Below are positions 6,853 through 23,264 of a stretch of DNA of 64,000 nucleotides, in pieces (positions within the stretch are counted from its first letter, which is position 1; each line of letters opens with the position of its first letter). Made by a program: the position numbers and the translations under genes. This stretch comes from an uncultured Holophagales bacterium (GTDB taxonomy: Bacteria > Acidobacteriota > Thermoanaerobaculia > Multivoradales > UBA5704), in assembly GCA_963842525.1 (NCBI GenBank), contig CAWJGT010000025.1:160001-224000 (forward strand). The letters are read 5' to 3'. The notes beneath the pieces are model-generated. The model ran no database searches and was not told where the DNA came from. It worked only from the letters and a program-made list of their open reading frames with translations.

Positions 6853-7061
6853 CTGCCGCCCGAAAGGAGGTCCGGGAAAGTGGCGGTCAAGGTGGGCTCA
6901 ATCTGACAAAGTAGTTTTCCACCGCCGTGTGGCCGCGATGGTAGAGGTGATCTCCTCAGACTTCGTCGGGAATGGCTTCGAAGTAGTACCGGACTTCATG
7001 CTTTCTTGTCTCCCGCAGGGACGTCTAGATCCTGCCGCACGCGCCAGAAAATCTCATGCCA

Positions 7062-7506
7062 GCCAGTGTAAGCTTATCCGCGCCAGATAAGCTTACACTG
7101 GCGGAGATAACGGTATCCGCGCCAGATAGTGTTATCCACGCCAGATAAGCTTACGCTGGCCTGGATAAGCTTATCTACGCCAGATAAGCTTATCTGCGCC
7201 GGATAGTGTTATCTGTGGCAGATAGCGTTATCCGCGTTGGATAGCGTTATCTGCGGCAGATAAGCTTACACTGGCCCGGATAACGCTATCTGCGCCGGAT
7301 AAGCTTATCTGCGGCAGATAGTGTTATCCACGCCGGATAGTGTTATCTGCGGCAGATAAGCTTACACTGGCCCGGATAACGCTATCTGCGCCGGATACGC
7401 TTATCTGCGGCAGATAGTGTTATCCACGCCGGATAGTGTTATCTGCGCCAGATAAGCTTACACTGGCTCGGATAACGCTATCTGCGGCGGATACGCTTAC
7501 GCTGGC
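7062..7506. repeat. Tandem array of ~23 palindromic 18-21 bp units (GATA-N4-TATC core)
   Basis: Units such as GCCAGATAAGCTTATCTGC and GCCGGATAGTGTTATCTGC; 96-bp higher-order repeat. Confidence 0.9.
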
Positions 7507-7641
7507 GTGCGTGGACGATCCGCGGAGGATGCTGCGGATCTGTGCCGCCGGTCCGGCGCGGTGGGAACGTTCGGGAGGAGAGCGGAACAACCGGGGAGCG
7601 TGGTGCGCACGCTCCCCGGAGTGCGTTTGCGGGTTTGAACG

Positions 7642-10357
7642 TCAGTACCGCACGATCGCCGACAGCACGTAGGACCGCGGCGAGGAGAAGGTTACGCCAC
7701 GGCCGAATTCCGGGTTGTTCGGCGCCGTGGCGCGGCCGAGGATCAGCCGGTCTTCGACCTCCGTGGCCACCTGGTCGTCCAGGACGTTCAGGATGCGGGC
7801 TTCGAGCTCCAGGCCGGCGGGGCCGAGAGGAAATTCGTAGGAGGTCAGCAGGTCGATGTTCAGCCAGTCTTCGGTCCGCCGCGAGCCGGCCGACTCCAGG
7901 TAGCGGACATAGGTTGCGCTGGAGACGTTGGCATCGGGCAATCCGCGGGCCTCCCAGGCGCCGCCGCTCTGGTAGCGGACGTAGGTGCCGAGCTGCACCC
8001 GCTCGAGCGGGCGCATCGCGGCGAAGATCTTGGCCACGTGTGTGCGGTCGCCACGCAGCAGGCCGTCCCGGTTCTCGTTGATCAGCACGCCGGGGCCGTC
8101 CTGGAGGAACGACGAGTTGTAGAACAGTGAGTTGGCGTAGTCGATGTCCCAGTTGCCTTCGAGCTGGCTCCAGGTGTAGCTGGCGCTGACCGACAGGCCG
8201 TAGAGGCGGTCGTTGGGCAGCCGGTTCACCTGCAGGGTGGCCGCCTTGTAGCGGCGGTAGGCGCCCGGGAGCTGGCCGACGCGGAACGGGCCGTTGCCCA
8301 GGCCGTCCCGGCTGATGTCTTCCATGATGTCGCCGACGTCGCGGTATTGCCCGTAGACCTCGGCCGACCAGACCGGGCCGAAGGGGCGGGCATAGCCGAC
8401 GAGGAATTCATCGGTGTACTGCGGATCGATCCCCTTGTCGACCGTCTTGGTCTGGGTGTTGGCGGCGGGGACGTCGCTGAGCAGGTTGCCGTTGGCGTCG
8501 AAGGTCGCCCGGGTGGTGAAGAGGCGGGTCGGCGAGCCGGCGCGCACCAGCGACTTGTTCTCGGTGTTGTAGTAGCGGCCCACGTAGGCGTAGAGCTTGT
8601 CTCCCAGGTCCAGACTGGGAACGAAGGCGACGCCCAGCCGGGGCTGGATCTGCTGGTCCCAGTCGAAGGTCAGGATTTTGACCTTGGTCTTGGTGCCCGG
8701 CGTGGCGCCCAGCCCTTCGCCGAAATAGTCGTCCTTGTTCAGCGCCAGGCCGGCCGTGATGGTGGTCCGGTTGCCGATGGTGAGCTGGTCCTGCAGGAAG
8801 ATGCCCCAGGTCTCGCTGCGGCCGGTGTGGGGCGGCTGCTGGGAGTTGTAGGTGGCGGTGAAAAGGCGCGTGGTAGGGTTCCAGGTGATGGTGCCCCAGC
8901 CGTTGGCCTGCCGCTCGAGCCGCTCCGAGCTCTCCTCGTAGCTTACGCCGAAGCGCAGGTCGTGGGTGTTGCCGAACCAGGTCTGGAAGGTCTGGTAGGA
9001 AGCCTTGGTCTGATCGCGCAGGAAGTCCTGGTCGTTGATCGCCAGGCTGGCGCCGCCCACGGTCTGGCCGGCGGCCGTGGCGCCGCCGACGATGCGGTCG
9101 GCCGTGGTGACGAACGCGCCGACCAGGTCGGGGCGCGCCGCGTTGAAGGCCGGCCGGTAGCCGAGGCCGGTCAACGGGTCGGTCGAGTTCTCTTCCTTGT
9201 CGTGGTGGTACTTCACCTCGACGAGGCTGTCGGCAGTGACGTTCCAGGTCCAGCTCGCGGTGCCCAGCAGGAACTTCGTCGAGTCGTCGCTCCCCACGCC
9301 CGGGTGGGCGTTCGCCCCGACGCCGGCGTTCTCGCTGGTCGACTCGCGGGAGCGGACGGCGGCCGACAGGTATTGGCTCGAGTGCGGGTTGGCCGTCAGC
9401 TTGAAGAAGTACTCATCCGTCTTGATGTCGAGGTCCGGGACGGTGCCGAGGTTGTTGCGCCGCTCGGTCGTGGTGGTCGAGGGGAAGCTCGCCGAGCCGT
9501 AGAACCAGAAGTGGTCGCGCACGATGGGTCCGCCCAGCGAGGCGGCGGGCCCCTCCCTGTCGATGGTGTTCTGGATGTTCTGGTTCTTGTTGTCCGACAC
9601 CCAGTCGGCCGGCTGGTACTCGAAACGGGCCTGGCCGTGGAACTGGTTGGTGCCCGACTTGGTCACCGCGTTGACCACCATGCCGCCGGTGCGGCCGAAC
9701 TCTGCGGTGATGCCTCCCCGCTTCAGGCTCACCTCGTCGATGTCGATCTCCGAGATGTTGGGGAGGATGTCGCCGTAGTGCGGATTGGTGATGTTGACGC
9801 CGTCGACCAGGTAGGTGTTGTCCATCCGCGAGCCGCCGGCATTGGGGGAGGTGCGGGTGGACGGGGCCTGCGCGACGCCGGGGGCGAAGCTCGAACAGGC
9901 CCTTGTAATCCCGGGCGAGCGGCAGCTCCTCAATGGCTTCCTGGGTGAAGTTGACCTGGGCCTCGGTCGACTTGACGTCGATGATGGGTACGGCCGCGGT
10001 GACGGTGATCTCCTCGGACATGGTGGCACTGAGGCTCAGATCGACCTGGGTATCCTTGTCGAGGGAGACGATGGCCGGCCTCTCCGCCATGCCCATGCCC
10101 GAGAGCTCGGCCGAAACCTGGTACGGGCCGGGGGGCAGGCGGGGGAACTGGAAGACACCGTCCGGGCCGGTGACAGCGGATTTACCGGCCGGGAGGAGCT
10201 CGCCGCTCACCTGGACGCTGACGCCGGGCAGCGGCTCGCCGTCGCCCGAACGGACGACGCCGGAGATGGAGCCGGTCTCCGCCGCGAAGACGGGGACGGC
10301 AAGGAGCGGGACCAGAAGCGGCCAGAGCCATGCAAAGCGTCGGGACCTGGGGTGCAT
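7642..10357 (-). CDS. TonB-dependent receptor with N-terminal carboxypeptidase-regulatory-like domain; one frameshift at ~9888
   Basis: Signal peptide MHPRSRRFAWLW..., TGSISGVV, LPGVSV, EEITVTA, LPLARDY | APGV, NTYLVDGVN, AEFGR..G.VVNAVTKSGTN, C-terminal VRY. Confidence 0.85.
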
Positions 10358-10516
10358 CACGATTCTCCTCTCATGGAAGAAGAAAGACAGGGACATGGGA
10401 ATCGTACCATGTGTGACGCCCCGGTGACGGGCCGGCGAGGACCATCCGCGGCCATCCGGTGATAGCCTTGGGGAACCTGGGAGACTGCGAGGCGTCATGA
10501 AATCCGGAGGTGAGAC

Positions 10517-11173
10517 ATGGAAGCTCTCGGCGAACGTCTGATCCAGGTCCTGGTCTTTGGGGGAGTCTGGATCGCTGCCGGTCTGCTGGTCCTTGCGCTC
10601 GCCGGGGTCTGGCGGCTCGGCCGGGCCTGGAAGCTCCGCCGCTGGCCGGGGCGCCTCGCCGCGGTGCTGCTCGTGCTCCTCTCCGTGATCTCCGTCCTGG
10701 GGCTCTACCTGCTGCTCGGCCCGCTCTCGTCGCAGTTGGCCGAAGGCAGGGCCGTCTACGCCAAGGTCGGCCAGGAAGCGCCGGACCTCGCCTTCCGCCA
10801 GGTGTCCGACGACGCGCCGCGGCGCCTGCACGACCTCCGCGGCAAGGTGGTGCTGCTCAACATGTGGGCGACCTGGTGCCCACCGTGCCGCGAGGAGATG
10901 CCCAGCCTGGACCGGCTGCAGAAGGAGCACGGGGACCGCGGCCTGGTCGTGGTGACGGTCTCGGACGAGGACCGGGAGACGCTCCGGAAGTACGCGGCGG
11001 ACCATCCGCTCTCGACCCTCTACGTCCACGACCCGGACATCGCGCAGAAGCTCGGGTTCTACGGCCGGCCGCTGTCGCTGGTGATCGACCGCGACGGGAC
11101 GGTCCGCGAGGCCGTCATCGGAAGCCGCAGCTACGAGGCGTTCGAGCGGAAGGTGAGCAAGCTGCTGGGGTGA
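10517..11173 (+). CDS. TlpA/ResA thioredoxin-like disulfide reductase, membrane anchored
   Basis: LRGKVVLLNMWATWCPPCREEMP. Confidence 0.9.
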   Translation: MEALGERLIQVLVFGGVWIAAGLLVLALAGVWRLGRAWKLRRWPGRLAAVLLVLLSVISVLGLYLLLGPLSSQLAEGRAVYAKVGQEAPDLAFRQVSDDAPRRLHDLRGKVVLLNMWATWCPPCREEMPSLDRLQKEHGDRGLVVVTVSDEDRETLRKYAADHPLSTLYVHDPDIAQKLGFYGRPLSLVIDRDGTVREAVIGSRSYEAFERKVSKLLG

Positions 11174-11174
11174 C

Positions 11175-11226
11175 CTCACCCCCTGTCCCCCTCTCCCATC
11201 GCCCCACCCCCGACCGGGAGAGGGGG
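11175..11226 (+). repeat. REP-like hairpin CCTCACCCCCTG.CCCCCTCTCCC...GGGAGAGGGG (left flank of island)
   Basis: Related copies at ~20075, ~36640, ~42080 (inverted), ~42986 and ~43092 (inverted). Confidence 0.75.
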
Positions 11227-11344
11227 GTGACCCGGTTAGACATGCCAGCGGTGTTCATGTGAGTTCACTGGTTCCGCCCTAGAGGGAAAAGCGTTTCATG
11301 GGTTGTCAGTTGTGGCCACTTTCAGCCAGTAAGCGCGGAGTTGT

Positions 11345-11376
11345 GTGACCCGGGCGTGACCCAGTTATGCTATACT
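11345..11376 (+). promoter_or_regulatory. Putative integrase arm sites (GTGACCC x2) and extended -10 (TGcTATACT); probably a leaderless integrase mRNA
   Basis: TATACT at 11371-11376, 7 nt before ATG 11384, with no RBS. Confidence 0.45.
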
Positions 11377-11383
11377 TACGCCC

Positions 11384-12679
11384 ATGAGCTACAACATCAA
11401 ATTCGAGGATCGCACCCTGCGCGGTCTCCGCGTTCCCGATGGCAAGGACAGGCAGGAATGGAGTGACACTGTGGTCCCGGGGCTTCGCTTCCGCAAGAGC
11501 GACAAGGGGCATGGCTCCTTCTCCGTCGTCTATAGGGTCAAAGGCCAGGACAAGCAGGACCGCAGGACCATCGGACCCTTCCCTCGCGTCTCCATCGCTC
11601 AGGCCCGCGAGGAGGCGCGACAGGATCTTAACGCCGCCAGCTCGGGACGTGACCCGAAGAAGCTCCGGATGGTTCCTCCCGAGGCACCCGAGGTCCACCA
11701 GATGACCTTCGCGGAGCTCTTCGAGCTCTACATGGAGCGTCACGCTCGCGACCATCTCGCGACTTGGTACGACGTCCAGCGGCGGGTCCGCAAGGATGTG
11801 ATTCCCGTCATCGGCCAGATGCCCGCCGGCGAGGTGCGCAAGCGCCATCTCCATCTGGTCATCGACCGGCTCGTCACCGGGGGGCACGCCGTCAGCGCTC
11901 GCGGCCTGCTGTATGTGATCTCGGCCATCTTCACCTGGGCCGAGGGGCGCGAGCTCGTCGAGTACAACCCGGTCCGGCGCTTCCCTTACCCGAAGCCGGC
12001 CGCGCCTCCTCAGCGCAGGAGCCTCTCCGACGATCAGCTCCGGGCGCTGTGGTTCGCCCTTCTGGAGATCGCCGACCATTCGGTGCCCGATAAACAGGAG
12101 GAGCAGAGCAACGGCCGGTTCACCACGACCCGGGATCTCTTCGCCCTGGTGGTGCTGACGCGGCTTCTGCTGGGCCAACGCACCACCGAAACCGTCGGCA
12201 TGCGCCGCCAGGACCTAGAGGCTCAGTGGTGGAATCTGCCGGGCTACATCGGGCGGCGGCGGTATACGAAGACGGGACGGGATCACCGGGTGCCGCTGGT
12301 GCCGCTGTGGAGCGAGTATGTGCTGCCACGGGTGGAGAGGCTGAGTGCTGGGCGGCCGTATGTCTTCCCCAGCGACCGGCTGCAGGACCAGCACCTCCAC
12401 GCCGAGAGCATCACGTCGTTCTGTTCCCGGGTGTCGGCCAAGGTGGGCTTCCCCTTCGCGGCTCGCAACCTGCGGACGACGTTCCTGACCTCCATGGCTC
12501 GGCTTGGTGTGCCGCAGGAGGTCCGGCGACGGCTGGTCAACCACAGCGATGGGACCGTCGAGACGATCCACTACAACCTTTATGACTACGACGCTGAAAA
12601 GTGGGCGGCCGGGCTGCGTTGGGATGCCCATCTACGCAGCATCTTCGCCGGCGAGGCAGCCCAGGCTGGGCAGGCCTAG
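11384..12679 (+). CDS. Tyrosine recombinase/integrase (P4-like, arm-DNA-binding domain)
   Basis: VPGLRFR...RRTIGPFPRVSIAQAREEA; GQRTTE; TKTGRDHRVPL; RNLRTTF; LVNH; HYNLYDY. Confidence 0.9.
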   Translation: MSYNIKFEDRTLRGLRVPDGKDRQEWSDTVVPGLRFRKSDKGHGSFSVVYRVKGQDKQDRRTIGPFPRVSIAQAREEARQDLNAASSGRDPKKLRMVPPEAPEVHQMTFAELFELYMERHARDHLATWYDVQRRVRKDVIPVIGQMPAGEVRKRHLHLVIDRLVTGGHAVSARGLLYVISAIFTWAEGRELVEYNPVRRFPYPKPAAPPQRRSLSDDQLRALWFALLEIADHSVPDKQEEQSNGRFTTTRDLFALVVLTRLLLGQRTTETVGMRRQDLEAQWWNLPGYIGRRRYTKTGRDHRVPLVPLWSEYVLPRVERLSAGRPYVFPSDRLQDQHLHAESITSFCSRVSAKVGFPFAARNLRTTFLTSMARLGVPQEVRRRLVNHSDGTVETIHYNLYDYDAEKWAAGLRWDAHLRSIFAGEAAQAGQA

Positions 12680-12927
12680 GCGGCCCAATCGCGCCGGCCC
12701 TCTTGCCATTCACGCAGCTTGTCCACGCGAAAGGCTTCCCTTCCGGGACTGAGAGTCTCGGGGGCAGGGAACCGGCCGGCCGCGATTTCCCGCCGCAACG
12801 TAGAGCGGGATAAGCTTGACCAACTGATCACCTCGGGCCAGGTCATGAACCGGGGGAGCACTTCACGGACGTTGGACAACGTGTACCGACTCGGCAGTGG
12901 CTGCTGCGGTCTGTGGACGTTTTTCAT
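12676..12927 (-). CDS. AlpA family regulator/excisionase
   Basis: FMTWPEVISWSSLSRSTLRREIAAGRFPAP...LREW. Confidence 0.8.
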   Translation of the reverse strand: MKNVHRPQQPLPSRYTLSNVREVLPRFMTWPEVISWSSLSRSTLRREIAAGRFPAPETLSPGREAFRVDKLREWQEGRRDWAA

Positions 12928-13021
12928 CGGTTTTACCTCGTATGAACTTGTATTGGCTGATGGCCCTGGCCGAGGGCGACACACAGAAAGCGCGCGAGCT
13001 GGCCGGCGTAGGTCGCGACTC

Positions 13022-13423
13022 TCACTTGCGTTTCCTGCGAGCCGGCGCGGGTTGGTGGTTGCGGTAGCGCTTGAGAACGGTGCGGATACCCTCGGCGGTT
13101 AACGGGCCTCGTGCCCCTGGAAACACGGGCTCGGGCACGGCCCAGAGCCGGCTTTCCATCAGCCAGGCGAGCAGCCGGGCTCCGAGGTCGGTGGGCAGAG
13201 GGGCGGACCAAGTGATGCCTTGGCGATGGACCGCAATGACGAGCTTGCTGTCGGCCATGGTGATGGCCGAGGCCTGGAGGGCTGCGATCTCGACGGCACT
13301 CAGGCCCGCCGCGATGAGAGCGAGGAGGGCGCCGTCACGTAGCCCCACGGCCTTGCCGGAATACACCCTGCCGGGATCGACGCGGGGAAGGAGCTTGTGA
13401 GCGTGGTTCGGATCGAGACGCAT
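13022..13423 (-). CDS. Truncated, probably inactive tyrosine-recombinase-like protein
   Basis: LRDGALLALIAAGLSAVEIAAL (box I, Arg replaced by Ser), PVFPG...LTAEGIRTVLKRY; no HxLR box or catalytic Tyr. Confidence 0.55.
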   Translation of the reverse strand: MRLDPNHAHKLLPRVDPGRVYSGKAVGLRDGALLALIAAGLSAVEIAALQASAITMADSKLVIAVHRQGITWSAPLPTDLGARLLAWLMESRLWAVPEPVFPGARGPLTAEGIRTVLKRYRNHQPAPARRKRK

Positions 13424-13900
13424 CAGGATGGCTCCCGGTGTTGCACGGCGTGGCGGCCCTGAGATCGCTCAGCGAAGGCACAAGAGATTCCGGTACTTCG
13501 GGCGGTGCTTGCGCCTCTGCAGGTCGCATGGCCGCCCGGCCAAGGTGTGGAGGCGGCGATTGCTGCTCCGACCGGAGCGGGTGCACGGCGGGAGCCGCTC
13601 TCCTCTTTCCTCTTTCCCAGCCGGGCTGGGTGGGGGAAAGTTGAGCGGGCCACCGGTGCTTGTAGGTTCCAGGGTGATGGGTTGGTCATCTTGGCTCCTC
13701 TCTCTGTCGGAGAGCAGGTTCCTTCGAGGAGCGCAAGACTTCCAAACCGACAGGAGGGCGAAATTTTGCGTAAGTCATTCGTACTAAAGGCGATTGACGG
13801 CTGAGGGCACAGGCAAATTGTCGAGAATAATCTCGACAATTCGGAGTCTGGACGCCTTCCGCCGCCGCAGAGTCGCGCGGGATGTGCTCCCGATCCGTGT

Positions 13901-14575
13901 TCAGGGGGCCGCAAGGAACCTCCATACCCTGGCCTGTCGGCGGGCGCGGTCTTTCTCGCTGTAGGTCGCTGCTGGGGCGATGAGGCCCACCTTTTTCGCC
14001 CGGTGCAGGGACTGGTTGGCCGTCTGAGGGCTGACACCCAGGACATCCGCGGCGTCCCGGCAGGCGAGGAAGAACTCTCCTCCATGGCTCCGCTGCCCGA
14101 GCCAGTAGCAGAGCGATGCCAGGCTGCGGAGGGTTGCGTCGCCGGGGTGGCTGAAGCGCAGCCCCAAGTCGAGAGGGCTGGCCTCGGCCAGCCGGGCGGC
14201 TTCCTTCACGAAGGAACCCAGGAGGTACGGCGAGGTGACCGCGTCCCAGGCTGCGATAAAGTCGGTCCGGGGATCGCTGAGCTGGTTGCAGGAGTCGAAG
14301 TCTTGCAGGCCGAGGTCGAGCCAAGGATTGGGAGACTCGGGATACATCTCGGCCAACTCGGCATCGAGGCGAGCTGTCGCCGCTTCAGCATCGAGACCGG
14401 TCAGCTCGCCATGCTCTTTGAGGCATCTCGCGAACAGCCAGGCAGGGCTCCGGTAGTCTTTCGGCTGCCTGGAACCGAGGTGCTCCAGGAGCTCTCTCGT
14501 GCTCCGGCTCGCTGCCCTCGCAAGGAGCTTGCGAAGCTCGGAATTTCCTTTCGCGGACGGTGATCGGCTCGGCAT
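13901..14575 (-). CDS. Hypothetical protein with C-terminal winged HTH (replication-protein-like)
   Basis: FFLACRDAADVLGVSPQTANQSLHRAKKVGLI...ARVWRF; GGAGAG RBS. Confidence 0.55.
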   Translation of the reverse strand: MPSRSPSAKGNSELRKLLARAASRSTRELLEHLGSRQPKDYRSPAWLFARCLKEHGELTGLDAEAATARLDAELAEMYPESPNPWLDLGLQDFDSCNQLSDPRTDFIAAWDAVTSPYLLGSFVKEAARLAEASPLDLGLRFSHPGDATLRSLASLCYWLGQRSHGGEFFLACRDAADVLGVSPQTANQSLHRAKKVGLIAPAATYSEKDRARRQARVWRFLAAP

Positions 14576-14698
14576 CTTGCTCTCTCCTTCCCAGCGAGCA
14601 GATTGCTCCCCGGAGCGCAAGACCTCCAAACCGGCAGGAAGGCCAGATCTGGCGTAAACGACTCAATACACTGGGGATATATGGTTCACAGCGAGAGA

Positions 14699-14895
14699 AA
14701 AGTTGTCCTGTTGAACAGGACAACTTTGACGGCACTAGGAATTTCTTGTTGCTAACAGCCAGCTTGACACAGGAGGCTCAAGCTACTCAGGGAGATTCAA
14801 GAAACCCACAGAATCTTGTATTCAGGTAGGGAGGAAGGGAAGGTTCTTGGGCTTCTTGAGTTTCTTGGGTTTCTTTGCGCTTCTTGTGTCAGCTA
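14699..14895. promoter_or_regulatory. Putative origin-like region: perfect 14-bp inverted repeat plus iteron-like ~9-bp repeats
   Basis: AAAGTTGTCCTGTT-G-AACAGGACAACTTT (14699-14727); CAAGAA(A/G)C repeats on the minus strand at 14845-14890. Confidence 0.45.
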
Positions 14896-15009
14896 CCACG
14901 AGCTACTCCAGGTCAGGTATTGACTCAACTCAAACCAAGGTGCTCCGTCCGGCCCCGCAGGGGCCGAGACCGAAGGTCTCCGGCGCCGGTGTCAAAGGGC
15001 GCAGCCCGC

Positions 15010-15404
15010 TGCACCCTTTTCTGCCAAAAAGGGATGCACTCCGCTTCGCCCTTTTCCCACGAAAAGGTGGTCCATAGGCGTGGCGCTTTTCAGCGCAAGC
15101 GCCGGAGGCGCGACGGCAGACGGCAGGGGATGACACGGACGAGCACAGACGGGCACGAGGCCGGCTCCGAAAACCTGGCTGCCTGCTTCCGGTTTCTCAC
15201 CGGAAAACCGGCTGCGGGCAGCCGATTTTCCCCCGAAACTCGCTGTCGGCAGCCAGTTTTCCTTCCCGAGCGAGCAAAGATGGCAAGGACTGACACGGCC
15301 GGGCACGGCGACACGGCCGGCGGGGGAAACGGGTCAGGGAAAAAAGGGTGCGCTCGGCCGCACCCTTTTGCGCAGAAAGGGTGCGCTCCACCGCACCCTT
15401 TTCG
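15010..15404. repeat. Cluster of short palindromic repeats (GCACCCTTTT..AAAGGGTGC; GAAAACCGGCTG..CAGCCG.TTTTC)
   Basis: Visible at 15010-15070, 15168-15262 and 15340-15404. Confidence 0.55.
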
Positions 15405-15407
15405 ACC

Positions 15408-16698
15408 TCACGCACGTGCCCGGGCGAGGGTGGCGGCGACATCGCGGGCAAGGTCGGCGGTGGCGGTTTCGCGGCGGGCGGCTTCTTGGAAGACGAGGAG
15501 GGCGGCCAGGGCTTCTCGGGGGAGATCCAGGTCTCGGAAGACGGTGACCATCTCGTCGGCCAGGCGGCGGACTTCGGCAGCACTTCCCTCCCCCATGTAT
15601 GAGATCGCCAGATCCAGGGCGGCGAGGGCGGCATCGAATGTGTTGCCGTCGTCGAGGAACTTCTGGCGGACCTCGGCCAGGAGATCGCGGGCCCGGGCCT
15701 AGTCTCCCAGGCCGGCGGCGATGCGGCCCTCCACCCATTCCAGGCGGACTCGGTCGAGGGTGCTCCCGTGGGCTGCGGCGACTGCCTTCAGCTCCGGGAG
15801 AAGGTCGGCTGCCTCGGAGTGGCGGCCGGCTTTCGAGAGGCTGTCCACGAGATTGTGGCGAACGCAGAGGACGAGGCGCGGCTCCCGGGCCGGGTCGATG
15901 AGTCCGTTTGCCTTCCTCAGGGCCTCGATGGCGGCCTCCGGTTCGCCCAGCTCGATGAGCGCGCCGGCTTTCAAGATGAGGCTTCGGCCGGCGAGGTGCG
16001 GATCCCGGTGCTCGGGTTGACCCTCCAGGAAGAGGGCCACGGCCTGGTCGAGCAGCTCGAAGGCTTCGGGAAAGCGGCGCTGCGCCACGCGAAGGGAGGC
16101 CTTCAGGTCCAGGAGGACAGGCTCATAGCCCAGGGCGTCTTCGGAGCCCTCGGTTCCCGCCTCCCACCAGGAGTCCGACATCTCGAAGCACCGCTCGCCT
16201 GCGGGCAGATCGCCCTGCACTCGGCGGGCGTTGCCGAGCCCGGCCCAGGCAAGGCTTCGGAGCTGGTAGACCCAGGGCTCCTCGAACAGCTCGCTGTCTG
16301 AGATCCTGTCGGCCACGTGGACGGCGAGGTCGGCGAGGTGGAGGGCCTCCGCCGGCTGCTCCGGCGCGGTCTGACAGCTCCTGCGGACCAGCAGCTCGCA
16401 GAGGGCCCCAGCTCACGAAGCGCGGGTCGGCGTGGAGGCGGGCGAGGCGCTCCTCCGGATCGAACGGCGCGAGCTCCTGCAGGAGCCGGGGGGCCTCGGC
16501 TCGTGACCGGGCGAGGGCGGCGTCGATTGACCGAAGACGGGAGGGAGGGCGTTGGCCTGGTGAAGCTCGAGGAGCCAGCCGCCGACCTCTCTACAGCGGG
16601 GACAGAGGTCCAGCAGGTGGAAGAGCTGCTCATTCTGCTCCGCGGTCCGTGGCGAGCAGACGCTCCAAAGCGGCGGTGTCGAGATGCTTGTGCTCCAT
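15408..16698 (-). pseudogene. TPR-like helical repeat protein with N-terminal H-x4-CxxC motif; two frameshifts and an in-frame TAG (15699-15701)
   Basis: Reconstructed MEHKHLDTAALERLL...LFHLLDLCPRC...WALCELL...LGNARRVQGDL...DPAREPRLVLCVRHNL...WVEGRIAAGLGD*ARARDLLAEVR...FDAALAALDLA...REALAALLVF. Confidence 0.7.
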
Positions 16699-16812
16699 GC
16701 GATCTCTCCTCGGGTTGTTCCTGGCGGAGAAGAATAGCGTAGGTACGGAACATCGAGAAGGCTGATGGCGAAAATGCGGGCCGGAAATCTGCCGCCCGGC
16801 CCGCAAGCACGC

Positions 16813-17094
16813 TCAAGGACGGCCGTTGGGATCGAGGATGGAGCCGTTTTCGCTGCCGGGCTCGGAACTCGTGCTGGCGCCGTTCGGTTCGAGGGCGGAG
16901 CCGTTCTCGCTCCAGAAGGCGGAGAGGAAGCTCCAGAGCTGGGCGAAGAGGCCTGGGGTGACCTGCGGGTGCTCGGCGGCCGAGTGGATGGTGTGGCCCT
17001 GGGGTAGGGCCTTGGCGTGGACGGGGGCGAGGAGGATGAAGGCCAGCAGGGCCAGAGTGAGGAGGATGGGGGGGCGGGCGGGGTATCGGGGCAT
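16813..17094 (-). CDS. Secreted peptide precursor with duplicated SENGSxL(E/D)PNG core
   Basis: AGGAG RBS; signal peptide ending VHA; cores SENGSALEPNG and SENGSILDPNG. Confidence 0.75.
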   Translation of the reverse strand: MPRYPARPPILLTLALLAFILLAPVHAKALPQGHTIHSAAEHPQVTPGLFAQLWSFLSAFWSENGSALEPNGASTSSEPGSENGSILDPNGRP

Positions 17095-17414
17095 GGGATC
17101 TCCTGAGGGCCGCCGCGGCTCGGGCCTTTATGGCCGGAGGGGGAGAGGCCTTCAGGATGAAGTGTGCACTGCCCTACCTGGAAAGAGCTGAGATGCTGGG
17201 ACTGGGACGGATACGGAGGGCTCTCGGGCAGAGCTGAGCGGGGCCGGGGCGTGGCAGTAGGGCCTCAACTGCCCGCCTGGATGCGGGGGTGGCCGAGGGG
17301 GCGAAGGGCCCTCTGGCGGGTGGGTGGGGGCCACGGTCGGTCAGAGAAACGGGTAGCACCTATCCGGGGTGGAACTGGGCCAGTGTTCCCAGAAGCGCGT
17401 CACTACCGCTAGGT

Positions 17415-19301
17415 TCAACGCCCGGGCTTCGGTCTCCAAGGGGCGAAGGTTCGATGCCAACGCCCGGGAGAAGCTTTTGGTTGGAGGAACTTCCTTCGTG
17501 CAAGTCGCGTGACAGTATGATTTGGCCCCAGGCCCAGCTCAAAGACCTCTACCATCCCCTGTAATGTTGGCCCGATCGTCGAATCGACCCCGCCTTCCAA
17601 GAAGACGCTCTTGTCCATCATCGAGGCCAGACGGAGCATTGGTTGCTCCGGAAAACGGATCGTTTCGTCAAGGTCCAGAGGAAAGAAAGAGTCGAGCAGT
17701 CGCAGACAGCGGCCTATCCATTCCTTACGGCGTATTTCAGGTGTCCTGGTTCTGAGGACCAATTGAACAACTCGGTGGACAAGAAATTTTTGATTCTAAC
17801 GAGTTATCATGGAATAGGAGGCCAGCTTAGCCAGAGCCTCTCGAACGGACTCCGCAGTCGGAGGCTGGCGAGTTTCCTTCCGAAAGGCTTTCGTCGCTTC
17901 TTCGACCAGAGCAGTGCTCTTCTCGAACATAGACTCGGGAATTGGATCTGGGGCGAGAAAGGCAGCTAGTCGCAGGATAGAAGCCGCCTTGGGCCGAAGT
18001 TGGCGAAAAGTTGTCTGCCAAGTTGTGGCCACAGAGAAGGGGTACTCCATAATACTATCGTCGTGCCACTCCAAAACTTCTTCGCGTTCTCTCTCCCATT
18101 CCTTCAGGTACTCGCGGAATGTAATCTGATGATGGACAATGTAAGCGGCTGCTTGCTGAAGAGCCAGCGGAAGGCCGCCAAGAGTCATTGCCAGACGCCT
18201 GGCTTGCTCGACCTGATCTTCGGCACGCCGCCTTTCTCCCTCTGTGCACTGGAGAAGGAATTGCGTCGCTTCTTCTGAGCTCAATTCCCCAATCGGCTGC
18301 TTCCGAACGGTCGGCGGCCATTCCCTTCGACGCGAAGTCAGAATGACGTGGCCATTTGTGAGTTTAGGAAGAATCTCACGCACCGCCTTGGCCGAGTCCT
18401 CCGTATCTACGTTGTCAAGGATCAACAGCCAATTGGTATGTTCCCGGAGCCAACGGATGACCGCCCCGACCGATTCGTAAATTTCCAGCTCCTCTCCACT
18501 GACCGCTAACCATTTTTCGCGATTTAACAAATCCTTCCTTGGGTCGAATTCGGGTAGATTGAGAAGGCCAGGGCTTGCAAGGTCTGCCAAACCAGATTGA
18601 AGCGCCGAAGGCGAGTCTGCAACTACAAAAAATATTGCGTCATATTGGTCCCCTGAACGCCAAGCATATTCTACCGCCAGCCGGGTCTTGCCGATGCCGC
18701 CCAAACCAGAAATCGCCTGAGCCTGCGTAAGTGCCGTCGCCTGGGCAGAAGTGTTGAGGTTCACAATAAGACGCCGCAGTTCATCTTCCCTTCCTTTGAA
18801 GAGATCACCAAGAGGAGAGAGGGGGAGATTGTGGAGGCTAGGAGCGGCGGCAGGTGTAAGTGGCGGATGGCTCGGAAATGGATCTGGCGGTAGGAGCCGA
18901 ACTGCTTGAGCGAGACGCTCCAATTCCGGCTGAGAGAGGCCCTTCCGTAGGTCAATTCGCAAGAAGCCCTTTAGAAACAAGATAACGTCAGTAGCATCTT
19001 CCTGCAAGCCGGGGAGCAGTAAGGGTATAACAGGTATTTTCCGCTCGACATTTTGAGCGATGCAGGCTTCGATCTCGGGGACCTGCCATCGCCCCAGGCC
19101 ATGAGGGCCCAGGAAGATAATCGCTCCCGTAGTCTGTGCGATGACATCCTGGATTTCCTGCATCCAGCGCTCTCCAGGACCGAGTTCACGCTCGTCCATC
19201 CACACATGAACGCCGAGATTCTCCAAGGCCATCCGAACCCGATGGACAACCTCTCGGTCCTTGCTATTATAGCTGAAGAATACGCCGACGCTGTTGGTCA
19301 T
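17415..19301 (-). CDS. TIR-NB-ARC (STAND) protein with in-frame TAG at 17796-17798 (possible pseudogene)
   Basis: VFFSYNSKD...WQVPEIEA (TIR); GLGGIGKT; LLILDNVD; LGGLPLAL; the frame continues past TAG as NQKFLVHRVVQLVLR...LGPNH. Confidence 0.8.
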
Positions 19302-19306
19302 GTAAA

Positions 19307-19560
19307 CTATACCCAGCCCACCAATTCCCGGCGAATCGTCTCGCCAGCACTTTCGATACCAGAACCGATATCCACGTATACGATCCCCGAAAGGTCAGAT
19401 GGTAGCTCCAAAGGTCCAGTGTACAGCAGGATCACGCGACCCCGCTTGCGCTGGAACTTCCCCAAAAAATAGCCTAATTCAAACACTACATTTTGACGAG
19501 AGCGGCGTTTCTCCTCGTTTGAGGACTCCGGCCCCACCACCCTATCGTCTGGTGCATCGT
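19307..19560 (-). pseudogene. C-terminal half of a CAP12/Pycsar-type TIR-like nucleotide-binding domain
   Basis: PDD...RSRQNVVFELGYFLGK..R.RVILL...ELPSDLSGIVY; N-terminal half absent. Confidence 0.75.
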
Positions 19561-19588
19561 GCCGCCGGCCATAGACCAAGACGCTCGG

Positions 19589-19866
19589 CTACGATCTCAC
19601 CCCGGAAGAGTGGCGGCTCTATGACGTGGGTGGCACCCCGGACCTTGGTGAGGGCGCCAAGCTCTTCGAGGCTCAGGGGGCGGCGGACCTGGCGGCGTGT
19701 TGAGACGCCGATGCCCTCCACGAGGAACCGGCTGCCGAAGGGGGCGACTCTCTGGATCTCGACGAGCTCGCCCGGCTCGAGGCCAGAGACGATGTCGCCG
19801 GGCTGGAGGTCGGGGCTCGAGCTTGAGCTCGGAGCCGGCGGACGGGGGTGGGAGGCCTGGGGTCAT
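19589..19866 (-). pseudogene. Remnant resembling the N-terminus of SNF2-type defence helicases
   Basis: LQPGDIVSGLEPGELVEIQRVAPFGSRFLVEGIGVSTRRQVRRPLSLEELGALTKVRG, then an abrupt end. Similarity recalled, not searched. Confidence 0.45.
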
Positions 19867-20325
19867 GGGTGGACCAAGAGGGGGTCAGGGCCTTCCGCCT
19901 CGGGCCGGCGGGGCGAGCGGTGGTGGCTGGAGCTGTCGGTCATTCGGTGGTTATTGTAATTCGTGGGGAGGGTGGGGCTCAAGGGTGGGGGGGAGGGAGT
20001 CGTGGAGGGACTCACGGACGGTCACGGACCCTCACAGACCCTTCGGAGCTTCGGAAGGGCGGCTGCGCCGGGACCCTCACCCCCTGGCCCCCTCTCCCAC
20101 ACGCACTCCCGCCCGGGCGAGAGGGCGTCTTCCCTTCCAGGAGTCGTGGCGGGTAAAATGGTATTATGCGTTCAGGTGCGTGGCCCAACAGGTCTGAGGG
20201 AGAAGCCTAGAAGCGTCGGTGCGGGACTCTCTCGGCACCAAAGAAGGTATATACGATTGGCCATGTCGCAATGTTATCGATTATCGGTGGCCCAACTCGA
20301 CGCACGGCTTCACTGGTGAGTAGAT

Positions 20326-21087
20326 ATGGCGTCAATGGCGTCAACAGATTCTCTGCTACATGAAGCTGAGCGGTGCGTACGCGACCGTCGCTACGCTGCT
20401 GCTCGCAGACTGCTTTCACCTGCCATGGATTCGTTGAGAGAGAAGGAGGATCCTGCTTCACTCTGCCATGCTCTTCTACTCGTTGGCACCTGCCAATTTG
20501 AACTTGGGGTGATTCCAGAGGCCAAGAAGCTCTTTGCGGAGGGCCTAGAAGTCGCGACGCGGAACAGATGCGATCAATGGATTCCAACCTTCCTGCATGA
20601 ACTCTCATTAGTCGCCTACAAAGAAGGAGAACTGACGGATTCTATTTCCTTTTGTGAGCGATCCATTGATATGTCCATTGACATTGCATTTGTGGAAATC
20701 GGACAAGGGATCACCGACGGATATGTCGACTATGATCTTAATCAGCTCGGCGGCGCTCTAAATCATTTGTGCGTTCTATACCAGGAGGCTGGCAATTACG
20801 AGAAGGCATTGAGTATACTAAACATGCTTCGCGCTAACTGTGAGCGCACATCTAACATTGATCTTTTGGGGGTTGTCCTTCATGAACTCGCATTGGCCTC
20901 TTTTGCTGTCGGTCGATACACTGAGGGAGCGCAATTCTTCGTCGATTCAATTCGAGAAAAGAAGAAAGTGGGAAACTTTGCCGGCATCAACAATTCCCTT
21001 AGGAGTCTTCAGACCTGCCTCCTCAAGTATCCGGACTCGCTCAAGGATTCAGAGGTACTCAACTTCTTAAAGGCCTATACCTCATGA
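20326..21087 (+). CDS. Tetratricopeptide repeat protein
   Basis: Repeated A.LHEL..V / ALNHLCVLYQEAGNYEKAL helices; lower GC than the host. Confidence 0.8.
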   Translation: MASMASTDSLLHEAERCVRDRRYAAARRLLSPAMDSLREKEDPASLCHALLLVGTCQFELGVIPEAKKLFAEGLEVATRNRCDQWIPTFLHELSLVAYKEGELTDSISFCERSIDMSIDIAFVEIGQGITDGYVDYDLNQLGGALNHLCVLYQEAGNYEKALSILNMLRANCERTSNIDLLGVVLHELALASFAVGRYTEGAQFFVDSIREKKKVGNFAGINNSLRSLQTCLLKYPDSLKDSEVLNFLKAYTS

Positions 21088-22118
21088 TTCGACCGGTCTC
21101 AGAGTCGCTCGATGAGAAAATGCGCGAGCAGGAAAACTGCCCATTTGACAGTCGAGCGGCAAGAGCGGTACTTGAAGATACTCTCTCTTACCAGTTTCAG
21201 GGGCTTGCTGACCGCCTCCTTGCTAACTTAGCCCTACGGGGCCGCGCAAGCAGTGAAGTTTGGTGGCAGCATTATTTGACGAGAGCGAAACCCTCAGAAA
21301 GCTTCCCAGCGGATTCCCCGGCTATTCTAAGATTTGCTCGGGAGTTTTCGGCCGAGATAGTTGCTGGCCGCATCCGTCCAATGAGCATTCAGGAGCTTGC
21401 CGACGTGGAAATAAGAATTTTTAACGGTTATACAAAACTATGGGATGACTGTCGAATAAATCGTCAGCTTCGACGCCTAGGATCAGGCTACAGGATTGTA
21501 TTCGTGGGCGCAAACCGTCTTCTCGTGAATCAGCTTCGCACATTTCTCGGGAGGCAAGGAAGTCTTCCAATTGATGCGCGCTTTATCTTTGGCCGCGTTG
21601 CACCCATGAGCTCGTGGCCGCTGGGCCCGATTTTTAATTTCGAGAAGGAGATTGCCGTATCTCCTTTTGTCAATGCCCAAGGGGCAGGGTTCAACTACGA
21701 AAACCGTGTCGTTGTTCGGCTGCCCATACTGATGACGCTGCTAAACGACGAGAGGACGGCTAAGTTCCAGGCGCTAAGCACCGTGACCCATGAGATGTAC
21801 CATGTCACCGGCTTTCGGGCACCCTATCCGCGCAGCTATTTGGAGGCCTATTGGGAGGAAGAGACGGCAGGAGATATTTGCCGCTTTACCGAAACTACCA
21901 GGACGTTTGAAGAGATAGCCAGGGAATTTTTCCTTAATTTTGATAGCCCTGTTCTGGCCGAAGTCAACAAACACCTTGGGTATGAGCATTTTCCCGCTCC
22001 ACCATATTCGCTGGAACAGATGATGGAGAAAATGGCAAAGAATGGCGTGATCCAGAAGATAGGCGATGGGTCGTTCAGATGTAGTTCGTTCGAGGAGGGC
22101 AAGCAGTGGCTAGTCTAG
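21084..22118 (+). CDS. Hypothetical protein with HExxH zinc-metallopeptidase motif
   Basis: LSTVTHEMYHVTG...EAYWEEETA; ATGA overlap with the TPR gene. Confidence 0.6.
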   Translation: MIRPVSESLDEKMREQENCPFDSRAARAVLEDTLSYQFQGLADRLLANLALRGRASSEVWWQHYLTRAKPSESFPADSPAILRFAREFSAEIVAGRIRPMSIQELADVEIRIFNGYTKLWDDCRINRQLRRLGSGYRIVFVGANRLLVNQLRTFLGRQGSLPIDARFIFGRVAPMSSWPLGPIFNFEKEIAVSPFVNAQGAGFNYENRVVVRLPILMTLLNDERTAKFQALSTVTHEMYHVTGFRAPYPRSYLEAYWEEETAGDICRFTETTRTFEEIAREFFLNFDSPVLAEVNKHLGYEHFPAPPYSLEQMMEKMAKNGVIQKIGDGSFRCSSFEEGKQWLV

Positions 22119-23264
22119 AGAAAATAGAAATTCCAATCACCGAATTTATCTGCGTGAATTGCCGGAGCAAAGATGAGCCTGAGGTCGCAGAACTTCCTTC
22201 CCCTTATGTGATATTAAACGTACCTCTACCTGCTGCGGGTCAGGAGCCAGTATCGGTGACCGTGGACGTTGAAAGTATTGAATGGAAGAAGTTGGACCCT
22301 GAAGGACTGTATATAGCGCAGGCAAGAGTGAGAATTGTATGTCCCTGTTGCGAATCCGCAAGATCTGTTATGCATCACATCGGCGCATCTCGGCTTGTGC
22401 TCGTATCGGCCGATGTATGCGGGAGTTGCGGAGGGGAGCTGAGCCTTCATGATGAGGAAATTACTTATGATGGCATGGCTGGGAGTGGTCCTTCGGTCGT
22501 GATTAGAGGCACTCTTGCGTGCGCGACGTGTACAGCCGAGAAGATGAGCGTTGAGGCACATGTCCCTGTGCGAGGTATTTTGGATGAAAATTCAGATGTG
22601 CAAGTAGAGATTGGTTTCCAGGGGGCTAGAGTAAGCCCTGCCAAGGTTGAATCAAGGAGGACGCGTCGACTTCTTGTCGTTGTTGCAAGCCCGCGAGATT
22701 CGGATCAGTTGCGCCTGGCGAATGAGTGTCGCATTATTGAAAAGTGCATCGAGAGGGGCAAGGAAAGAGACTTTTTGGAGACTAAGATCATTCAGGCCGC
22801 GACAATTGATGATTGGGCTAGAACGCTTCTAGAGGATGAATACAATATTATCCACTTTTCTGGCCATGGCACGGGAGCTCGGCCTCGTGCTCGAAAAGGA
22901 GAGCGGCCCGTCGTTTGAGGATGATAGCTGCTTGTCGCAGATAGTGCCGCCGCAGGCACTTGGGAACATGCTTGCGGCACATAAAGCCGTTGAATGTGTA
23001 GTTTTAAATGCATGTTTTTCATCTACCCATGTGGAAAGCTCGCTAACAGATGTAGATTACTCAATACTAATGGATGGGCCAATTTCTGATGCTGGCGCTA
23101 TGGAGTTTTCAAGAGGATTTTATGATGCTGTCGCCGCTGGCAAGAGTATTGACTTCGCCTTCGGAGAAGGGTGTCGACGAATCGATTTGAAAGGTCACCT
23201 TGATGCAGAGTTACCGCTGCTTTATGCCAAAGGTGTAAAGGTAACTTCCAAGCCACCTGCATAA
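22106..23264 (+). CDS. CxxC-rich N-terminus fused to a CHAT (caspase-like) domain; frameshift at ~22880
   Basis: CVNC, CPCC, CGSC, CATC; VASPRDSDQLRLANE; IIHFSGHG | GLVLE...VVLNACFS...ISDAGAMEFSRGFY. Confidence 0.75.

Follow-up and report, generated by a model that had tools for sequence, protein, structure and literature searches.

We report here on a two-gene cassette in a 64,000-nucleotide stretch of DNA from an uncultured Holophagales bacterium (assembly GCA_963842525.1, contig CAWJGT010000025.1, called C25 below, positions 160,001 to 224,000); the whole stretch is called the window, and positions without a contig name are counted from its first letter. The cassette pairs a gene for a small pre-peptide with a gene for a tetratricopeptide repeat (TPR) protein, and it is one member of a family of such cassettes that has undergone great expansion in this acidobacterial lineage; the window holds one decayed copy. 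We see roughly even chances that these are peptide/receptor cassettes resembling the RRNPP systems, though unrelated to them in sequence.

Both genes lie on the minus strand, and the TPR gene is co-oriented with the peptide gene and starts 114 bp downstream of it. The peptide runs from a leader through a spacer and a Trp-rich helix (LFAQLWSFLSAFW) to two near-identical cores of 10-11 residues. An earlier note on this DNA, made from the letters and a list of open reading frames (ORFs), had described a 93-aa ORF with a signal-like N-terminus, an LWSFLSAFW helix and two cores, followed by a co-oriented helical-repeat gene of about 430 aa with an H-x4-CxxC motif; all of these parts are present. 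The parts of the cassette and the means by which they were placed are as follows.

16813..17094, minus strand: pre-peptide gene, intact (93-aa ORF from the ORF list; stop codon at 16813-16815)

17014..17094, minus strand: signal-peptide-like segment, aa 1-27, MPRYPARPPILLTLALLAFILLAPVHA (sequence inspection; homologous N-termini align in 31 paralogues)

16912..16950, minus strand: Trp-rich amphipathic helix LFAQLWSFLSAFW, aa 49-61 (family-wide pattern [LF]W..L...W in the peptide alignments)

16879..16911, minus strand: core unit 1, SENGSALEPNG, aa 62-72 (sequence and unit list)

16822..16854, minus strand: core unit 2, SENGSILDPNG, aa 81-91, followed by RP and the stop (sequence, unit list and four-copy alignment)

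16775..16805, minus strand: 11-bp GC-rich hairpin followed by AUUUUCG, between the peptide and TPR genes (folding of the 117-nt spacer)

15408..16698, minus strand: pseudogene of a cytoplasmic protein of about 431 aa with a Cys/His motif (H-x4-C-x2-C) and TPRs (three-frame translation, DNA alignment and Pfam)

15330..15400, minus strand: two stacked GC hairpins ending in a U6 run, directly after the TPR stop (minimum free energy -45.3 kcal/mol, z -3.94; 0 of 200 shuffles as good)

The Sec-type leader (MPRYPARPPILLTLALLAFILLAPVHA|K, with a putative cut before K) was called by eye from the sequence. Paralogues of the window peptide on contigs C23, C3 and C4 are 76-83% identical to it in amino acids, and in the four-copy alignment the C23 and C4 peptides share its terminal unit, SENGSILDPNGRP. 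Among these four close copies the ratio of nonsynonymous to synonymous substitution rates (dN/dS) of the whole peptide gene is 0.43-0.80, with conservation concentrated in the helix and the last unit. Searches with the window peptide found nothing in Pfam or NCBIfam. The 117-nt spacer folds with a minimum free energy of -43.9 kcal/mol (z -2.07; 7 of 200 shuffles fold equally well), and from its fold the hairpin at 16775-16805 may be an attenuator or a weak terminator. The double hairpin at 15330..15400 is likely, from its structure and position, to be the terminator of the cassette. A consensus scan of 15200-17500 for promoters and terminators returned no promoter and a single terminator, at chance level and on the opposite strand; it did not report the hairpin at 16775-16805.

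Further evidence that the two genes form a unit comes from the whole genome, which comprises 9.95 Mb in 34 contigs. Whole-genome searches gave about 120 matches to the TPR protein and 17 to the single window peptide, and a motif scan gave 37 ORFs with at least two G-x-x-[LIVMFA]-[DE]-P-x-G units; one of these, C3:1377591, was removed from the set as a chance match. A profile built from 31 aligned peptides identifies 61 small ORFs at E<=1e-5, of which 54 have a TPR paralogue within 1.5 kb and 47 have one within 500 bp. When peptides were placed at random in 200 trials, a mean of 2.1 and a maximum of 7 fell near a TPR paralogue, against the 54 observed. Conversely, 67 of 100 merged TPR loci have a peptide no more than 1.5 kb away. 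Two layouts prevail among the linked pairs: 32 are co-oriented with the peptide upstream, as in the window, and 20 are convergent. The peptides of the convergent layout are mostly of a Cys type (GCxIDPxGxC) and adjoin TPR paralogues with a helix-turn-helix (HTH) N-terminus. When ORFs of 90 aa or more lying up to 4 kb from 38 loci were clustered all against all, no third family appeared in more than 7 loci: the TPR family with its antisense shadows and the peptide recur around these loci, and no enzyme, transporter or protease does. In three cassettes of another subfamily, a conserved ORF of about 120-160 aa lies between the peptide and TPR genes (C3:154777-155268, C29:24732-25109 and C32:4566-4937); it is absent from the window cassette.

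The repeated units are specific to each cassette. The unit consensus has ten residues, [DE]-x-G-x-x-[ILM]-D-P-x-G, and occurs in 1-4 copies per peptide; by a strict definition at least one unit is present in 60 of the 61 peptides (one in 17, two in 25, three in 17 and four in 1). At the seven variable positions, units within one peptide share an identity of 0.60, compared to 0.32 between peptides, and none of 2000 permutations reaches this value. In 22 of 60 peptides, the last residue is the G of DPxG. The earlier note had proposed a search for covariation between peptides and receptors. Receptor identity and best-unit identity are indeed correlated over 30 pairs (Mantel Spearman r 0.29; 1 of 2000 permutations as high), so that peptides and receptors have diverged together, but co-duplication of the cassettes alone would suffice to produce this signal.

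Loci in other genomes were gathered with the TPR protein as the query, and the related records are metagenome-assembled genomes of Holophagales, Thermoanaerobaculia or Acidobacteriota. Among 41 related genomes, the TPR query matches in 38 and the peptide profile in 31, and the profile matches in all 24 genomes of the window's own family; the 31 genomes together yield several hundred peptide matches. In a phylum-wide sample, the profile matches in 2 of 301 genomes, both of the window's family; because 16 candidates were scored per genome and the sample included one other genome of that family, this figure says little about absence elsewhere. A peptide-profile match (E<=1) lies beside the TPR homologue in 18 of 20 loci from other genomes (L060 and L067 have none), where L019 and L057, and likewise L021 and L065, are the same sequences from two collections. 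Thus, small DPxG-type ORFs beside homologous TPR genes, which the earlier note had suggested looking for, are found across diverged paralogues and in other genomes. Where orthologous receptors share at least 69% identity with the C23 protein, their peptides retain the terminal core G-S-I-L-D-P-[ND]-G but differ in their leaders. The ESM Atlas returned just unnamed 'hypothetical protein' clusters from Acidobacteriota with scores of 0.90-0.91, and the receptor alignment, run against the viral contigs of IMG/VR, gave 149 pattern stretches, none of which was confirmed as a relative.

The TPR gene of the window begins MEHKHLD at 16698, contains FHLLDLCPRC as its H-x4-C-x2-C motif, and shows TPR_12 and TPR_MalT-like repeats of Pfam in its C-terminal 334 aa. 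Three-frame translation reveals three frame changes and an in-frame TAG in this gene. The lesions were defined against an intact 431-aa paralogue on contig C23, with a mean DNA column identity of 96%: a 5-bp deletion at about 16643-16648, a 1-bp deletion at about 16527-16530, a 1-bp insertion at about 16403-16405, and a nonsense codon (CAA>TAG) at 15699-15701. Hence the gene is disrupted, as the note had supposed from the letters. Related contigs from four public runs show the unbroken state at all four lesion sites where these are covered: base 15701 is G, not A, in the contigs of all four runs, and relative to the window they have one base fewer at 16403, one more at 16527-16530 and five more at 16648. 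The window copy itself occurs in none of these runs (best share of sampled words 0.22); as they hold relatives only, they indicate that the intact form is the norm and do not thereby prove the window assembly correct. The soil, rhizosphere and sediment labels of runs with small shares were set aside as evidence on habitat. An assembly error is formally conceivable for the 1-bp indels. We nevertheless argue for real decay, because rpoC of the same assembly is open over 1397 aa with no break, the TAG and the 5-bp deletion are atypical of homopolymer errors, and the TPR gene of the colinear C4 copy is likewise split over three frames. The dN/dS of the C-terminal part of the window TPR gene against C23 is 0.15, equal to the value between two intact copies, and the decay is therefore recent.

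Two side observations concern genes of this kind. Contigs of metatranscriptome library X20 match two parts of 15408-16260 at 90-95% likeness and come from a relative; they give a faint hint that such receptors are transcribed, with DNA carry-over as a possible source. In addition, many TPR loci of the genome show up as two or three neighboring pieces that differ in frame (e.g., C4:4388-5376, C5:32957-34290 and C34:46867-47834), which suggests either frequent decay in this TPR family or a concentration of indel errors there.

Structural analysis was based on the intact C23 receptor (431 aa), whose C-terminal 332 aa show 95% identity to the window copy. The AlphaFold2 model of this receptor has a mean predicted local distance difference test (pLDDT) score of 93 and is all-helical, with 21 helices. 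The modeled fold is a TPR superhelix whose nearest solved structures are LGN and, next, the pheromone receptors Rap and NprR. By sequence the protein is cytoplasmic and consists of a short N-terminal module followed by a superhelix of about 330 residues. The module differs among paralogues: 27 of 54 near-full-length paralogues carry H-x3-5-C-x2-C, and several others carry an XRE-type HTH sequence, confirmed as HTH_3/HTH_31 of Pfam in one HTH-type paralogue from a related genome. Residues C34 and C37 are invariant in 16 orthologues, and the motif lies at a helix-helix junction and is preceded by a conserved His (H5); Tyr replaces the motif His in one member of the N-terminal alignment and also in L059. 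A profile of the N-terminal 100 aa matched a single protein among the PDB sequences, AhpD, at chance level (E=1). Pfam-A and NCBIfam scans of the receptor gave generic TPR families, with TPR_MalT below its cut-off, and NCBIfam gave nothing for the intact receptor.

We also co-folded the C23 receptor, with an 18-sequence alignment, and residues 47-93 of the C23 peptide, with a 17-sequence alignment. The pair scored 0.47 (runs of 0.36, 0.53 and 0.47), whereas the best of three controls scored 0.00, and the result falls into the weak-support grade. In calibration, the pass mark is reached by 116 of 157 solved complexes and 2 of 215 mismatched pairs, while the range of scores up to 0.60 holds only 18 of the 157 solved complexes among its passes together with both passing mismatches; these counts hold only roughly here because the alignments were self-made. 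Between runs, 77% or more of the contacts coincide; the pLDDT of the partner never falls under 45 but drops below 50 in some of them. Docking of the AlphaFold type, which the earlier note had suggested, thus separates the cognate pair from its controls with a pass of the weak grade, and it gives a small upward nudge to the idea that the peptide may bind the receptor.

The note had suggested that the pair might be an analogue of the RRNPP and arbitrium systems, and this proposal stands in linkage, architecture and fold and fails in sequence membership. Like the RRNPP(A) systems (Rap-Phr, NprR-NprX, PlcR-PapR, Rgg-SHP, PrgX and AimR-AimP), the cassette has a small gene for a presumably exported pro-peptide adjoining a gene for a cytoplasmic TPR-type receptor; many paralogous cassettes occur per genome, some of them on integrative elements, and proteins joining HTH and TPR exist in the acidobacterial family. 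We know of no counterpart of a peptide architecture in which a Trp-rich helix is followed by DPxG units, some of which could form disulfide loops. The N-terminal module of the window subfamily, unlike those of RRNPP(A) receptors, is a His/Cys motif with no family or fold match and not an HTH or a Rap-type three-helix bundle, and the host belongs to a different phylum, one with an outer membrane. The diderm lineage supposed by the note is Acidobacteriota, judged from the related records. Repeated cores are present in some RRNPP pro-peptides, according to the available part of one report (PMC11343458), and an RRNPPA survey speaks, in its available part, of Firmicutes only (PMC9765709).

Two other known groups share features with the receptor. 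Like the ZAS (zf-HC2) anti-sigma factors, it has an N-terminal H-x3/4-C-x2-C motif at a helix-helix junction, and a few TPR paralogues lie directly beside a Sigma70_r2 gene (e.g., C34:43598 and C34:46015) or, as at C9:582190, have one about 1-2 kb from the TPR match. In contrast to ZAS proteins, the motif spacing is x4 in the window subfamily, His is replaced by Tyr in some orthologues, and none of 5 proteins tested matches zf-HC2 of Pfam at E<=1. As for a cognate sigma gene, none of the 47 Sigma70_r2 matches of the genome falls in the window (C25:160001-224000), and none falls in the mobile element that carries the cassette there. The eukaryotic peptide binders of the LGN/Pins type and the carboxylate-clamp TPR proteins are structural analogues only, and at 14-16% identity no shared function is implied.

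Set against ALTERNATIVES, the most likely mechanism is a peptide signal with a cytoplasmic receptor, which the anatomy fits best and to which we assign a probability of about one half. We favor it because the precursor has several cores, the repeated units are specific to each cassette, peptides tend to end at DPxG, the TPR domain is joined to an HTH or Cys/His module, pairing is strict with co-divergence, and no third gene recurs. The pre-peptide would be exported and then cut into its units; the units would accumulate outside the cell, re-enter, and dock into the TPR groove of their cognate regulator, and the regulator would then alter transcription. Regulators of the HTH type would act on DNA directly, while those of the Cys/His type would hold or release a partner protein. 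Since the variable residues of the units differ between cassettes and repeat within a peptide, each cassette would be a private signaling channel. The window copy, with a dead receptor and an intact peptide gene, could at most emit a signal. Because the C23 receptor is intact and the terminal unit of the C23 peptide is the same as that of the window, the C23 receptor could read this signal; such a signal-only role, suggested by the sequences, is possible and speculative.

Several observations weigh against the signal and receptor mechanism. The receptor has no sequence homology to Rap, NprR, PlcR, Rgg/ComR, PrgX or AimR in Pfam-A and NCBIfam searches, and in the structure comparison LGN and the APC/C TPRs score equal to or above Rap and NprR, so the fold match may reflect nothing beyond a long TPR superhelix. 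The co-fold pass is of a weak kind, which is more often wrong than right unless the guess is already likely, and it returned no interface. The Mantel signal demonstrates co-inheritance and not binding, and at E<=1e-5 the search finds no peptide up to 1.5 kb away from 33 of the 100 TPR loci. A diderm cell has an extra outer membrane to be crossed, and linked to the cassettes there is neither a dedicated exporter or protease nor an Opp operon. Of the 3 SBP_bac_5 genes in the genome, two lie within about 4 kb of TPR paralogues (C1:375359-376348 and C9:403765-404823), yet neither of these two is in a transporter operon: one stands alone and the other immediately precedes the gene of a dCache histidine kinase. 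Export also fits less easily with 7 of the 18 peptide-bearing loci from other genomes, where the peptides are leaderless, 35-48 aa long and start at the amphipathic helix (e.g., MLRLSQLWSFLSFLW...), which opens an intracellular reading. At these loci (L058, L059, L061, L062, L063, L064 and L018) the peptide is upstream of the TPR gene and has the form M[LF]RL.Q.W.FLSF.W with one or two GDTGSILDP[ND]G units, and the adjoining receptors are 72-78% identical to the C23 protein. Finally, the analysis demonstrates gene structures, breaks, linkage, family size, distribution and fold; export, processing, re-import, binding and regulatory output are inferred.

The window cassette lies inside a tyrosine-integrase element, which agrees with the mobile island of the earlier note and bears on whether the cassette could serve the element. 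The features of the element are as follows.

11164..17322: integrase element of about 6.1 kb, approximate span (blastn homology to other genomic copies)

11384..12679, plus strand: tyrosine integrase, 431 aa, intact (Pfam Arm-DNA-bind_3, Phage_int_M and Phage_integrase; PHROG 1, E 3e-44)

13022..13423, minus strand: 133-aa element ORF with no Pfam or PHROG family (conserved in the C4 and C9 copies)

13901..14629, minus strand: 242-aa element ORF with a weak HTH-like C-terminus (Sigma70_r4_2 E 0.0018 and MarR_2 E 0.0064, both below curated cut-offs; no PHROG; conserved in C4)

17257..17277, plus strand: 21-nt right-end motif of the element family (with no more than 3 mismatches, 13 genomic sites, including the right ends of the C4, several C23 and C27 copies)

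Six further integrase copies with 84-93% DNA identity are found on C23 (two copies, C23a and C23b), C27, C9, C4 and C19. The segment C4:1-6145 is colinear with window positions 11176-17167 at 82-93% identity; C23a has the integrase and a cassette with different cargo between them, C23b and C27 have the integrase and a right-end homologue only, and C9 and C19 carry other cargo. With an intact integrase of Arm-binding, central and catalytic domains and six more copies of variable cargo, the element resembles other small tyrosine-integrase elements, but no att repeats or tRNA target were found for it. Its ends were defined solely by the limits of homology to the other copies; the att search found no shared exact repeat of at least 10 bp at these ends, and there is no tRNA in the window. 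Among the 54 linked cassettes, only those of the window, C4 and C23a were found adjacent to this integrase, and the receptors are broken in two of them (window and C4). Because most cassettes are elsewhere, the minimal element copies are cassette-free and two of the three element-borne receptors are broken, the cassette looks like cargo of the element and not its switch.

Among the other explanations, a regulator and its regulated product is the most probable, although we think it unlikely. Here the small protein would itself be an exported effector, such as a periplasmic or surface peptide, a metal- or Ca-binding turn-repeat peptide or a disulfide-looped antimicrobial, and the TPR protein would control transcription without binding the peptide. 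Tight linkage without any recurring transporter or processing gene is compatible with such a pair, as are the whole-peptide dN/dS of merely 0.43-0.80, the weak co-fold support for binding, and the convergent, mostly Cys-type peptides (20 of the 54 linked), which could form disulfide loops like those of secreted toxins or bacteriocins. On the other hand, the 38 loci have no recurring immunity or export genes, the likeness of units within a peptide and the 22 of 60 ends at DPxG suit released ligands better than a folded effector, the co-fold score of 0.47 compares with 0.00 in the controls, and the nearest bacterial structures of the TPR domain are peptide receptors. An intracellular partner switch is improbable in our judgment. 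Within the cell the peptide would act on the TPR protein as a bound inhibitor or co-factor, and export of the leader-bearing forms would remove it and so couple regulation to secretion and not to cell density, a principle akin to that of FlgM. The 7 of 18 loci with leaderless forms speak for this switch, as do the family-wide conservation of the amphipathic helix and the cytoplasmic nature of the receptor. Leaders, however, are present in all 31 aligned paralogues of this genome, and leaderless hydrophobic pro-peptides are also exported in known RRNPP systems, as stated in the available part of the survey (PMC9765709).

Control of the element by the cassette, which the note had drawn from the arbitrium analogy, would mean that the cassette senses the density of element-bearing cells and decides the excision or transfer of the integrase element, in the manner of RapI-PhrI of ICEBs1 or of phage arbitrium. 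There is a precedent in the control of ICEBs1 by RapI (PMC9765709, in the part available), and the cassette does lie inside an element of about 6 kb of which three copies (window, C4 and C23a) carry it. We regard this as quite improbable, given the distribution of cassettes and broken receptors over the element copies described above: of the 54 linked cassettes only three were found beside this integrase, C23b and C27 lack a cassette, C9 and C19 bear other cargo, and the IMG/VR scan with the receptor alignment confirmed no relative. The chance that the peptide is the precursor of a ribosomally synthesized and post-translationally modified peptide (RiPP), which was the alternative offered by the note, appears very slight. 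Tailoring enzymes would then modify and release its cores while the TPR protein served as a leader-binding scaffold, and repeated cores behind a conserved helix do recall multi-core RiPP precursors. A Sec leader is unusual for RiPPs, however, and half of the near-full-length paralogues lack the Cys/His motif, several of them having HTH-type N-termini that mark them as transcription regulators. Since no modifying enzymes were found, with no enzyme family recurring within 4 kb of the 38 loci and no family there besides the TPR protein and the peptide, a RiPP is unlikely.

The surroundings of the element contain further features. An AhpC/TSA-family gene lies just before its start, and directly to its right is a lower-GC segment with TIR/NB-ARC and related genes (17796-22918, 52-58% GC compared to about 67% elsewhere) that looks like a defence island and contains the following features.

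17796..19301, minus strand: protein with TIR_2, NB-ARC and DUF7779 (Pfam)

19307..19579, minus strand: fragment of a CAP12/Pycsar-type TIR effector

20326..21087: TPR_12 protein

22106..22918: ORF with a weak CHAT match

To the left, a stretch of about 500 bp within 7028-7620 has dozens of matches at 66-84% identity on both strands of at least 9 contigs (C1, C3, C4, C7, C8, C9, C11, C19 and C25) and is a dispersed or internally repetitive sequence family. Next to it, at 7642-11179 on the minus strand, a gene resembling those of TonB-dependent receptors appears as two overlapping ORFs in different frames, with CarboxypepD_reg in 9413..11179 and the barrel in 7642..10029; a real frameshift may lie behind the split, or it may be no more than an artefact of ORF calling in DNA of high GC content.

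Quorum sensing through cytoplasmic peptide receptors is regarded as characteristic of the Gram-positive Bacillota. In the literature on RRNPP, on Gram-negative TPR/propeptide systems and on peptide quorum sensing in Acidobacteria, we found no published description of this cassette family, with subscription journals outside the coverage. If the signal and receptor mechanism is true, peptide signaling extends to a diderm phylum, with dozens of systems per genome in the abundant and poorly cultured Acidobacteriota of soil, and the question arises of how peptides of this sort cross two membranes. The family would also provide a large natural set of peptide/TPR specificity pairs. More tentatively, and with somewhat less than even confidence, we suggest that genomes of this Acidobacteriota family may each hold about 50-60 private peptide channels with receptors unrelated in sequence to those of RRNPP and a new DPxG type of pheromone, cut from multi-core precursors and disulfide-looped in some cases, that small integrase elements may move single channels from genome to genome, and that copies with dead receptors and live peptide genes may act as signal-only 'broadcasters' to intact receptors in the same genome or in neighboring cells. 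To this the window copy adds that small integrase elements can carry such cassettes and that the decay of a cassette can be asymmetric, with the receptor lost and the signal kept.

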